Shown piece after piece: positions 26,418 through 32,000 of a stretch of 32,000 nt of DNA. Below the pieces are notes generated by a model. That model did no database searches. It was not told the DNA's origin and was given only the letters and a program-made list of their open reading frames with translations. The translations under genes and the position numbers were made by a program. Each line of letters begins with the position of its first letter. Within the stretch, counting starts at the first letter, position 1. The stretch comes from an uncultured bacterium (GTDB lineage Bacteria > Patescibacteriota > Gracilibacteria > UBA1369 > PNNO01): contig OY969931.1 in assembly GCA_963704705.1 (NCBI GenBank), positions 30,001-62,000 on the forward strand, read 5' to 3'.

Positions 26418-26502
26418 AAAATTCATTCTTTTGTCATGAACAATTTTTATTTTATATAAGCCGAAAACTAAGGTTAGCACGAAATATTAGCATGAAACAT
26501 AT

Positions 26503-26530
26503 TTGCGTTATTGTAAAATATGGTGATAAT
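26503..26530 (+). promoter_or_regulatory. Candidate promoter for the RHS gene
   Basis: TTGCGT, 16-nt spacer, GATAAT. The -10 ends 39 nt before the ATG at 26570 and lies downstream of the alternative ATG at 26492. Confidence 0.35.
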
Positions 26531-29500: not shown

Positions 29501-32000
29501 GAAATAAATCTAGGAGAAGTAAATGCAAATGCAAACGGCACTTTTACTGATGTGGGCAGTGATACTGTTGAGACTCAGCGAACTTATGCCAGCCCCCTTG
29601 CAGGATTAACTGCAACAGAAACAGTTTTGGATGGATTAAACAATAAGTTAAAGGAAGTCAGGTATTATTATGATAATTTACCTTTGGGTCAGGCTACCGT
29701 GGGTAATCAGACCTCAGTAGCAAATTGGCATAAATCAAGTGAGTACTATACCACTCAATATGTTTGGGACGGTTATGGAAATGTAATAGAACAGATTGAT
29801 CCTCTTGGGAATTCCATGACAGCAAATTATAAACAGGATCATTTGTATATTGATTCTTTAACCAACGCGCTTGGTCAGAGCACTGATTATGATTTCAATT
29901 ACCTAACCGGCAATCCAAGTTATGTTCAGGGGCCGAATAATAATGTTATAAGACATTATTTTGATTCGATCGGCAGACACATTAGATCGGAAGTTTCCGA
30001 TCCTCAGAACTCAAATAATTTATCCAAAATAAAAGAAATAACTTACAACGACCAAAGCCTTCCAAATTACAGCGAGTTAAAGTTGTTTGATTCAAAAAAC
30101 GATACGACACCTGTTACATCAAGGTCTTATTTTGATGGAAGAGGAAACGTTATTCAGAACAGATCAACTTCAAATACACCTGGAACTTACATTGTTACTG
30201 ACAATTCATATGATGCAAAAGGACAGGTTACAAGAGAATCTCTTCCATATTTTACTTCGGGGACAGCTTATCAAAGCGTTAATTTGGCAAAACCAGCAAA
30301 TTTATATACATATGACGTTTTGGGAAGAATCAAGCAAGTGTCAAATGCGCTCGGCACAACATCAACTGATTATAATTTATGGAATTCAACAATTACCGAT
30401 CCTTTAAATAATCAAAAAGATTTGATAATGGATGCTTACGGAAGACTTGTTGAGGTACATGAGCACAACGGAGCTGACGAATATATTACTCACTACGAAT
30501 ACACTCCACTCGGCCTGCTAAGCAAAATAACTGACCACTATGGTAATTTACGAACATTTACTTATGACGGACTGGGAAGACTTACAATGCAGACAGACTT
30601 CCATTTGCCGGCTGATACTTCATACAGCAAATGGTCTTATATTTATGACCAAAATTCAAATTTGCTTACCCAATCTTTCGGCGACGGAAGCAATATAAGA
30701 TACTATTATGACCAGCTTAACAGACCACTGAGAGAACATTCTTCAAAAACCGGAAAAGACGAAGTTACATACACTTATGATACAGCACCGTATGGAACAG
30801 GTTTACTTGCTTCGATTACAAAAGACGACTGGTCAAATGCTTTTGAATACGACATTAACGGAAATGTAACCAAAGAAACAACTTTAATTAAAGGAGACAG
30901 TTATGTAACAAACCGGCTGTTTGATTTACAGGGGAAGATAACAAGACTTATTTCGCCGGACAACAAAATGATCAGATACGCATATAATGATATGGGGCTT
31001 ATTGATAATGTATATTATGGATATTCCATTCTTGCCAATAATTTGGATTATACGCCTTTGGGCCAGATGTCGCATATTGAATTTTCAAACGGTGCAGTAA
31101 CGGATTATGATTATCCGGAGTCTGATTTATTTAGACTAGGTCATATAACAACAACTTTAAATGGCCAGACCATTCAGGATTTGGATTACACATACGATGC
31201 TTTAAACAACCTTACGCATCTTGTTGATAATTCACAGCTGCTTACAACTAAAGTTGCGGATTTTATATATGATGATTTATCAAGACTTACAAGCGCGGTT
31301 GCAACAAAAAATGGGCAGCCGGTTTACAATCAGGCTTATGATTACAATGCCATCGGCAATATTATGAATAAGTCCGATGTCGGCTTATATACTTATGCCG
31401 GAGGGATAGCTTCTTCAGCGCCTTCTGTATATTCAAATCCACACGCTGTGACAGCAGCTGGAGCAGTTAATTATTTATATGACAGGAGAGGTAATGTAAC
31501 CAAAATTAATGATAATTTGACAAGCAAAGAGCTTACATATGATTACAATGATGATCATATAATTTTTAAGAACGGAATTGATGGAGTGAGGTATGGTTAT
31601 GATAATTCAGGCAATAGAGTATGGAAGCAGGAAATTGAATATTTTGCGATTGAGCCTAAAGTTCCTTTGATAACAAATACACTGTTTACGAAAGAAACTA
31701 CTACATGCACTCCGATTTCAGCACCTGTTCGCACAAAAAATACTTTAATAGGTAAAGAATATACTATTCAGTTAAGCTCAAGATATAACTATGACGAAGA
31801 ATGCCGGGCAATAAAAAGTACAGGCACCGAAACTCGCTATGTTGGCGGATTTTATGAAGAAACCCGCGATAAATCAACAACTGTCAAAGGCGGAACAGAC
31901 ATAGTAAAAAGATTAAACATCGACGTCAACGGCATGCAGATCGCCACAATCGAGACAAGGCCAAAAGCTTTTCCGATCGGTTCGGTTGACGTACGCACCT
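26570..32000 (+). CDS. Giant secreted SpvB / FG-GAP(VCBS) / TcdB-middle / RHS-YD repeat protein (fused TcB-TcC-like toxin cocoon), 3' end outside window
   Basis: Frame 2 has no stop from 26459 to 32000, more than 1810 codons from the ATG at 26570. It is absent from the ORF track because there is no in-window stop. Signal peptide: MNYFKKYSAALLCCTVLFSIVLPGTVFA/QDS. SpvB-type segment: GSASYSKNLYLPPGRNGFTPSLSINYDSG..IVGFGWNLS. FG-GAP loops: DFNGDGLTDLL, DYNNDGLTDVL, DLNSDGMTDWL, DLNGDGMIDII. TcdB-mid-like segment: FGGFHVITKTD..GKPYRIEIY. Many YD repeats: YDGYGNV, YFDGRGNV, YDAKGQV, YDGLGRLT, YDINGNV, YDRRGNV, YDNSGNRV. Confidence 0.9.
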   Translation, partial: MNYFKKYSAALLCCTVLFSIVLPGTVFAQDSIVTREIIPTESVNRELRLDRHTEFNDNLGKLETEEPLIEEKIEPNVDPNTIEQQELNPPEIEIPELPEIPEMPSPEDLTPIASSLTDPIDLIDRVGEATQKADIEVVNSNGSASYSKNLYLPPGRNGFTPSLSINYDSGNKSNDSIVGFGWNLSQYYISLNPRYGVDKMYETNEFVANTPLDNAEIIDVNLTDSKHGIYGAKIEVAFQKYEFLSNDTWKVTDKNGTQYFYGQTAASRQDDPNDSTRIYKWMLDEIRDTNGNWIKFDYYKDSGQIYPRSINYTGNGIEQGLMTVKFQPFYNGPSTVRNDNITKYTNGFETTTNYILDNVEVEINGKNNGHSVLRYDFDYTTSTSNKRSLLTSFTQVGIDENGVETALPSTEFAYSDAGNTSWVEDTNWTGGCIIGTKPWGEPNQATQNRLIDRNYDGLLDCGIGDYNNNQGSVNTGSGFDVNGANLMIPDQLYYDWPSTAMMEVNGDGKVDFVESIWDDPSTHQRSLDISGTNPGFTNNSIPTPLFKYGAYRQFGFKFADFNGDGLTDLLQLKKESNTTQTPAVWLDQNIYINNGVDGWDLDTGWQFDPKMYFVYNSYNPNLTNKDHVSHYDSAVLDYNNDGLTDVLIEDQSSSTGIYVYLNNGNKGFEQVNISNIEPYYLGLQTTRDFGIRMVDLNSDGMTDWLRAYEQGATYLQFKTFDTKDYVTNNNFNYPVEALISMGTGHYQGVELADLNGDGMIDIIQGMNDSSFIPGIYKYHVWLNQGNIPDMLVGIDNNRGGQTTLEYKNSPLYRDTNGNLENPNLHLPKMTLNKVTYSNDFGDDYIAQYNYEDGEHIYEDSFHNEFGGFHVITKTDNLGIVEKTYYHQGGGIDGSAQGEYNDHISKKGKPYRIEIYKDNGGALSKYTQTLYKWEKADLGNQRYFPKMTQQIDFVFNVGSSKASATSITYDDNNGNIIEEINLGEVNANANGTFTDVGSDTVETQRTYASPLAGLTATETVLDGLNNKLKEVRYYYDNLPLGQATVGNQTSVANWHKSSEYYTTQYVWDGYGNVIEQIDPLGNSMTANYKQDHLYIDSLTNALGQSTDYDFNYLTGNPSYVQGPNNNVIRHYFDSIGRHIRSEVSDPQNSNNLSKIKEITYNDQSLPNYSELKLFDSKNDTTPVTSRSYFDGRGNVIQNRSTSNTPGTYIVTDNSYDAKGQVTRESLPYFTSGTAYQSVNLAKPANLYTYDVLGRIKQVSNALGTTSTDYNLWNSTITDPLNNQKDLIMDAYGRLVEVHEHNGADEYITHYEYTPLGLLSKITDHYGNLRTFTYDGLGRLTMQTDFHLPADTSYSKWSYIYDQNSNLLTQSFGDGSNIRYYYDQLNRPLREHSSKTGKDEVTYTYDTAPYGTGLLASITKDDWSNAFEYDINGNVTKETTLIKGDSYVTNRLFDLQGKITRLISPDNKMIRYAYNDMGLIDNVYYGYSILANNLDYTPLGQMSHIEFSNGAVTDYDYPESDLFRLGHITTTLNGQTIQDLDYTYDALNNLTHLVDNSQLLTTKVADFIYDDLSRLTSAVATKNGQPVYNQAYDYNAIGNIMNKSDVGLYTYAGGIASSAPSVYSNPHAVTAAGAVNYLYDRRGNVTKINDNLTSKELTYDYNDDHIIFKNGIDGVRYGYDNSGNRVWKQEIEYFAIEPKVPLITNTLFTKETTTCTPISAPVRTKNTLIGKEYTIQLSSRYNYDEECRAIKSTGTETRYVGGFYEETRDKSTTVKGGTDIVKRLNIDVNGMQIATIETRPKAFPIGSVDVRT

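Follow-up and report, generated by a model that had tools for sequence, protein, structure and literature searches.

The stretch of DNA analysed here, called the window below, comprises 32,000 nucleotides (positions 30,001 to 62,000 of contig OY969931.1, forward strand) from an uncultured bacterium of the Patescibacteriota, and its right-hand end is occupied by one very large gene of the plus strand that encodes a fused TcB-TcC-type RHS toxin. All coordinates are those of the window, and positions past its edge are given as window equivalents. A preliminary description of the sequence had proposed that the last 5.4 kb, although empty in the list of open reading frames (ORFs), is continuously open in frame 2, and this is borne out by translation, in which positions 26459-32000 give 1847 codons with zero stops. 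At a G+C content of about 36% for the window DNA, an open frame of this length cannot be due to chance, and the gene is absent from the list because the list leaves out ORFs that run off the window edge. Residues 1-1836 of the database protein P0001, which is 2157 amino acids long and is encoded on a 1,374,545-bp NCBI/ENA contig, are identical to this translation. Hence the expectation of a protein of more than 1800 residues in a small genome agrees with a full length of 2157 residues and a patescibacterial host contig of 1.37 Mb. The gene extends 965 nt beyond the window and ends at window-equivalent 32965. Its start is probably the ATG at 26570 (MNYFKK...) and not the first in-frame ATG at 26492, since the orthologue P0002 aligns from exactly that methionine; the annotation of P0001 uses the alternative start at 26492, and the product therefore has 2,131-2,157 residues depending on the start. 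The coding sequence within the window is accordingly given as 26570..32000 (plus strand, cut by the window edge).

The modules of the protein follow one another in the order that had been proposed from the translation, and profile hidden Markov models (HMMs) and motif searches recover the same order and coordinates (residue numbers here and below follow P0001). The coding sequence opens with a putative Sec-type signal peptide, MNYFKKYSAALLCCTVLFSIVLPGTVFA↓QD (26570..26653; the arrow marks the cleavage position), in which a KK n-region, a hydrophobic core and a VFA-Q site can be read from the sequence, and a comparable hydrophobic N-terminus is found in 62 of 79 homologues. It is followed by an acidic, Pro/Glu-rich linker of low complexity (26654..26986), including the stretch PPEIEIPELPEIPEMPSPED at 26834-26893, which P0002 conserves poorly. 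The next module (26987..27478) is an SpvB/TcaC N-terminal-type domain, corresponding to the N-terminal part of TcB (Pfam PF03534, residues 166-329, E = 1.5e-18), that also matches the PDB structures of SpvB (6p0x) and YenB. Exactly six calcium loops of the form Dx[ND]x[DN]GxxD lie between 27923 and 28852, which fits the six FG-GAP/VCBS repeats placed earlier at about 27920-28860; these blades are matched by PF13517 (FG-GAP_3, four stretches) and PF01839 (FG-GAP) and would form an integrin-like beta-propeller equivalent to that of TcB. A TcdB middle/N-terminal region, TcdB_toxin_midN (PF12256, residues 775-909, E = 1e-18), spans 28814..29218, and from 29219 the RHS/YD-repeat shell of about 1,000 amino acids runs to position 32000 and continues past the window. 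The shell is recognized by RHS_repeat (PF05593, seven stretches, E = 1e-18), TIGR01643 and DUF6443, and from residue 1092 to the window edge it contains 16 [YFW][DN]xx[GN] motifs, where at least 15 had been predicted. Of the families that the preliminary description named for a profile search, SpvB, FG-GAP, TcdB_toxin_midN, RHS_repeat and the Rhs-associated core were thus recovered and TcdB_toxin_midC (PF12255) was not: even with E values of up to 10 allowed, P0001 gives no match to it, and among the matches listed it appears for one homologue only, the distant P0114. Database searches returned 194 homologues at E <= 1e-3, and all but 3 of the 120 homologues listed carry SpvB.

The Rhs core and its C-terminal tip

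It had been expected that the RHS-core end motif and a cargo toxin would lie just past position 32000, and P0001 contains both. The Rhs-associated core occupies window-equivalent 32075-32347 (plus strand; TIGR03696, residues 1862-1952) with a score of 73 bits against a cutoff of 32.5. Its end reads YVDPSG↓N, a cleavage motif of the DPxG/PxxxxDPxG type. The aspartyl-protease pair is kept as well, namely D1915 (in RFMAVD) and D1949 (in NNPLKYVDPSG), each of which reaches 90% conservation or more in an alignment of 20 family members. Beyond the cleavage site lies a toxin tip of 205 amino acids (window-equivalent 32348-32962, plus strand), characterized by a tip profile and an AlphaFold2 (AF2) model. 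Shortly after the site the tip contains a hydrophobic helix, residues 1974-1992 (window-equivalent about 32411-32467). A strongly hydrophobic segment of 19 residues within 90 residues past the cleavage site recurs among the homologues independently of toxin type (35 of 79), compared with none of 395 control windows taken from the shell; it is also seen in P0002 and in the orphan module of locus L031 (L031 1309-2286). The helix could have a role in membrane entry, or it could plug the shell from within.

Judged from its motifs and from the structural model, the cargo is an R-S-E ADP-ribosyltransferase (ART) of the TreX/Scabin-like group with about 130 residues. The predicted ART residues are R2037 (in YRG), S2084-P-F-V-S-T-T (S2084/T2089-T2090) and E2131. 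Relatives of the tip are rare: a word-index homology search returned none, and when 1.84 billion representatives were scanned exhaustively with HMMER, only 10 turned up, several of them placed behind Rhs cores or a Hint domain, the closest coming from a metagenome-assembled genome (MAG) of Candidatus Peregrinibacteria. The pattern YRG...SP[FY][IV]SxT...E is present in all ten, and their alignment also shows an invariant His. A metagenome scan with the last 321 amino acids gave Rhs-core matches only (residues 1-123) and no ART. In Pfam the tip has a Scabin-like match below threshold (E = 5e-4, 20.5 bits against a cutoff of 27), and among solved structures the tip family profile matches TreX (8s2m_B) at E = 1e-7. 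The AF2 model built on the alignment of the relatives reached a predicted local distance difference test (pLDDT) score of 84.5 and a predicted template modelling score (pTM) of 0.79, compared with a pLDDT of 33.7 for single-sequence AF2. The top Foldseek matches of this model are the Xenorhabdus bovienii Rhs toxin chains 8s2n, 9gco and 8s2m, titled TreX/TreTu (E = 3e-6 to 6e-6, template modelling score up to 0.62), followed by cholera toxin A1, LT and pertussis S1, and the model together with these matches supports a predicted ART fold.

TreX itself is an Rhs tip delivered by a type VI secretion system (T6SS) that ADP-ribosylates FtsZ and requires the TrxA of the victim, and Scabin-like relatives of TreX modify DNA (PMC11606950). 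The protein described here shares with the Rhs-TreX of X. bovienii (PDB 8s2m, 9gco; PMC11606950) an Rhs cocoon with an R-S-E ART free of cysteine, as in the TrxA-dependent TreX cluster, and this toxin provides the best profile and fold match of the tip. The two differ in that TreX uses the T6SS and has an E-x-E motif, whereas the tip has N-E-E at its place, and their identity is about 25%. The TreX-like ART of the window gene might additionally depend on the thioredoxin of its victim. With these features the predicted cargo adds a rare N-x-E, cysteine-free ART subgroup to the TreX/Scabin family.

Exchangeable tips, orphan cassettes and putative immunity genes

The closest homologue, P0002, sits in a syntenic locus (L009) with the gene order ispG, dxr, GDSL lipase, two GT2, Fe-ADH, trxB, RHS, two small ORFs and then carB on the opposite strand. 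P0001 and P0002 are 51% identical through the shell to the DPxGN motif, and after it their tips cannot be aligned; the flanking housekeeping proteins of the two loci are 66-84% identical. A second source of alternative tips was found in short-read data. The Logan contig L001 reproduces window 15473-31984 at 100% identity; it breaks off within the RHS gene, at 31984, about 90 nt before the region that encodes the Rhs core. Another Logan contig from the same sample, L030, carries carB, and a carB gene (product P0155) is also encoded on the 1,374,545-bp contig. Beside carB, on the RHS strand, L030 has an open frame that enters from the contig end (5141-6469, minus strand) and reads GDKAMLVNPQKLNSYSYVYNNPLKYTDPSGN, a near-copy of the core end of P0001; after ...NNPLKYTDPSGN comes a tip that is entirely unlike that of P0001. 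Only 15 nt after this alternative tip starts a 215-aa ORF, P0271, which is likewise present on the 1,374,545-bp contig. The simplest reading is that the L030 element is a rhs-style orphan module, made up of a core end, an alternative toxin and an immunity gene, which would be placed downstream of the main gene. The core sequence shared by the two would explain why the short-read contig breaks at 31984.

As far as such sequence comparison can tell, the tip of the RHS protein is swappable, because the same motif is followed by an unrelated tip in the syntenic orthologue, and because a second core end lies next to carB in the same genome, together with an alternative tip and the 215-aa ORF. Small ORFs of immunity type begin 4-16 nt after the RHS stop in L009 and in three further homologous loci (L010, L028 and L029). 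Neither the alternative tip nor P0271 matches a Pfam family, and the same holds for the small downstream ORFs in the related loci. In L010, an orphan fragment of a YD shell is accompanied by an Imm33 gene and an EndoU module. In L031, which holds the nearest ART homologue in a Peregrinibacteria MAG, an ORF of 198 amino acids follows 37 nt later, and then come an orphan core-plus-Ntox33 module and a DUF4279 ORF. Arrays of orphan modules and immunity genes behind a main RHS gene were observed at L010 15812-20286, L031 593-3035 and L029 16943-17706, with Imm33, EndoU, Ntox33 with its own Rhs core, DUF4279 and Barstar among them. Serine recombinases are often found near the orphan arrays of related patescibacterial loci.

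Relation to known toxins and proposed mode of action

Among solved structures, the family profile matches the TcdB2-TccC3 fusion best (E = 1e-113), in line with the TcB-TcC cocoon relationship suggested by the preliminary description, followed by TcdB1 (1.5e-70), YenB (6e-58) and then T6SS Rhs shells and bacterial teneurin-like proteins. At profile positions 293-812 the alignment covers residues 291-798 of TcdB1, and the SpvB-type domain, the six-bladed propeller and midN are collinear with TcB. The protein thus has in common with Photorhabdus TcdB2-TccC3 and Yersinia YenB-YenC2 the SpvB N-terminal module, the propeller, the mid region, the RHS shell, the aspartyl-protease core and a cargo of ART type. 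It differs from the cocoon of ABC (Tc) toxins in being a single polypeptide with a Sec signal peptide, in the missing TcdB_midC match and in its rhs-style orphan cassette, and no TcA is in view; to our knowledge, canonical TcB has no Sec signal peptide. The distance from the linker end to the core is about 1,800 amino acids, compared with about 2,150 for TcB plus the TcC core, which corresponds to a smaller shell. The earlier remark that no TcA component is visible on the upstream side agrees with the finding that the 26 kb upstream (window 1-26400) contain no ORF of more than 700 amino acids and no TcA Pfam family; likewise, nothing TcA-like lies within 10 kb of the syntenic locus L009 or of L010, L028 and L029. 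Given the fact that no TcA partner was found in any context tested and that midC is absent, the protein is not a member of the ABC toxin systems.

The modules match exactly the definition of the 'TcdB/TcaC' class of polymorphic toxins, which comprises a signal peptide, SpvB with an integrin-like beta-propeller, RHS repeats and, at the C-terminus, a variable toxin that comes with immunity genes (Zhang et al. 2012, Biol Direct; PMC3482391). The phyletic list given for this class in 2012 is without Patescibacteria (PMC3482391), and the present protein is set apart by a rare TreX/Scabin-like ART tip with N-x-E and by the recurring hydrophobic helix right after the cleavage site. On the strength of its domain content it is a Rhs polymorphic toxin with the TcB-type N-terminal modules of that class, and no new kind of system. 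We found no paper that deals specifically with SpvB-RHS toxins in bacteria of the Candidate Phyla Radiation (CPR). A comparable arrangement is that of WapA of Bacillus subtilis, reportedly a Sec-exported RHS/YD toxin of an organism with no outer membrane, which is said to have a swappable C-terminal toxin with a downstream immunity gene, N-terminal cell-wall-binding repeats and tRNase tips. In the present protein, SpvB and a propeller stand where WapA has its cell-wall-binding repeats. Teneurin-type proteins carry an FN-plug and an NHL propeller. No NHL match was found in P0001, which has SpvB and FG-GAP as its N-terminal modules. Bacterial teneurin-like proteins (PMC13018210; PDB 9pt5, 9ifo) share with it the predicted Sec export and surface exposure, a YD shell and propeller that enclose a polymorphic toxin, and immunity genes, expected in the present case, and the family profile matches the teneurin-like shells 9pt5 and 9ifo at E = 1e-51 over shell and core only. 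The protein is nevertheless filed outside this group because it has a TcB-type plug and propeller (SpvB-N, FG-GAP).

We consider it likely that this gene of a Peregrinibacteria-like patescibacterium specifies an RHS cocoon of the TcB-TcC type, made as a single chain and exported through Sec, which counts among the polymorphic toxins of the 'TcdB/TcaC' class and acts without TcA. The polypeptide would be exported unfolded through Sec and would fold outside the cell, where self-cleavage at DPSG↓N would leave the ART held inside the shell. The cocoon would then stay on or near the surface of its producer until contact with a neighbouring bacterium, either a competitor or the host of the probably episymbiotic cell, leads to release of the tip. 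The hydrophobic helix could help the tip across the target membrane, after which the ART would modify a cytoplasmic target; a cognate immunity protein, expected immediately downstream, would protect the producer, and no TcA would be involved at any step. Several points qualify this scheme. We detected no domain in the RHS protein, SLH included, that would anchor it to the cell wall or S-layer. The tip (N-E-E; residues 2128-2136, QNEEVLIPG) and its two closest relatives have Asn where the ExE motif begins, as compared with Glu in the other eight, which makes ART activity and acceptor specificity uncertain, and the acceptor specificity may be unusual. Self-protection, and hence a bacterial target, we infer from the loci of relatives. 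Finally, that the genome contains no TcA anywhere is likely, the regions checked being the 26 kb upstream and 10 kb around the four homologous loci.

Other readings of the same locus lead to different targets or functions. If the protein were the fused B-C subunit of a genuine ABC toxin, a TcA encoded elsewhere would dock on the propeller and inject the ART into eukaryotic cells. The best solved homologues, TcdB2-TccC3, TcdB1 and YenB, including the TcA-binding propeller, would fit such a role, and organisms that do have TcA, B. pseudomallei among them, contain natural B-C fusions (PMC7861908). However, no gene of TcA size or family was met in the regions just named, a Sec signal peptide is present and TcdB_toxin_midC was not detected, the orphan tip and immunity arrays are of rhs style, and the host is a patescibacterium of 1.37 Mb, so that we regard this explanation as quite unlikely. 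A freely secreted toxin against eukaryotes, be they grazers or an animal or protist host, would need no immunity, and no immunity gene was seen in the sequence covered for the ART tip, whose model also resembles the cholera, LT and pertussis R-S-E ARTs that act on eukaryotic targets. Such a role seems unlikely, given that the closest relative in sequence and fold is the antibacterial Rhs toxin TreX (PMC11606950) and that the nearest ART homologue, in L031, is laid out in antibacterial style, with the 198-aa ORF close behind it and then the orphan Ntox33 cassette. The protein could also serve mainly as a teneurin-like adhesin or receptor that attaches an episymbiont to its host, with a vestigial tip. 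Patescibacteria live attached to hosts, and integrin-like propellers and YD shells serve adhesion in teneurins and in bacterial teneurin-like proteins (PMC13018210), but the protease Asp pair, the DPxG site and the R/S/E residues of the ART are all kept, and tips are exchanged among relatives and stored as orphan cassettes, a pattern that makes sense only under selection as a weapon; we therefore hold the adhesin explanation to be very improbable.

Under the favoured reading, a Sec-exported cocoon that acts without TcA, a genome-reduced Peregrinibacteria-like bacterium with a contig of 1.37 Mb spends about 6.5 kb on a rhs-style weapon with a spare toxin cassette, which suggests contact-dependent antagonism or host attack as part of the CPR lifestyle. 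Compact, single-chain and Sec-exported without an accessory machine, the system is suited to asking how RHS cocoons release and import their cargo without TcA or T6SS, a question that applies equally to WapA-type toxins and to teneurin-like proteins. A more far-reaching idea, which we put forward as doubtful, is that the single-chain cocoons of Patescibacteria are a self-sufficient, TcA-independent delivery device, in which the TcB-type propeller would act as a receptor-triggered gate and the post-cleavage helix would carry the cargo across the membrane of a host or competitor. If true, toxins would enter by a new route here, one that episymbiotic CPR bacteria turn against the cells that carry them.

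Host and neighbouring genes

The ispG product of the window is 84% identical to that of the Patescibacteria single-cell genome SAG AM-311-A13, and relatives of carB at 72-87% identity are labelled Patescibacteria or Candidatus Peregrinibacteria. The host is a small-genome, Peregrinibacteria-like CPR member, probably with an S-layer-bearing envelope of Gram-positive type. Two probable surface proteins are encoded near the left end of the window, one at 178-864 (plus strand) with a BclA_C-like match that stays below threshold (27.5 bits, the cutoff being 38) and one at 1317-2318 (plus strand) with three SLH domains (E = 7e-40) and a Gly10 run. Their presence implies an S-layer envelope, to which the exported cocoon might be tethered.

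Immediately upstream of the RHS gene lies trxB, encoding thioredoxin reductase (25473..26393, plus strand), whose identical database product matches Pyr_redox_2 and related Pfam families and which is 80% identical to the trxB at the same position beside the orthologous RHS gene in L009. It belongs to the surroundings of the toxin system and is no component of it. A functional tie between trxB and a thioredoxin-dependent TreX-like toxin was considered and dropped; the orthologous locus keeps the same adjacency with an unrelated tip, and the adjacency is thus a matter of synteny that is probably coincidental. The hairpin and candidate promoter proposed for the interval after trxB fared less well. 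A hairpin GTGTTGT/10-nt loop/ACAACAC is present right after the trxB stop (26394..26417, plus strand), with a 7-bp stem in which 26394-26400 pairs with 26411-26417; it was not called in a terminator scan and is at most a weak terminator candidate. The one promoter-like site found (26492-26519) is at chance level, with 1.5 sites expected by chance.

Several other genes of the window deserve a brief mention. A RuBisCO large-subunit homologue is encoded at 2332-3624 (minus strand; PF00016, E = 5e-93; PF02788), with no small subunit nearby; such homologues have been reported for the nucleoside-salvage pathways of CPR bacteria. Two paralogous multi-pass membrane proteins of 128 amino acids (3728-4114 and 4629-5015, both minus strand), both containing ...HNIWE..W......GW.G..KG...., flank an unrelated ORF of 140 amino acids. 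No Rfam families and no tRNAs were found in the window. A lone IS200-like Y1 transposase of RayT type (5045-5482, minus strand; 145 amino acids, PF01797, E = 9e-11) stands in a housekeeping region. Between infC/rplT and ispG, a highly acidic protein of 671 amino acids with a poly-acidic C-terminus (14872-16887, minus strand) matches no Pfam family and is conserved in a Logan contig.

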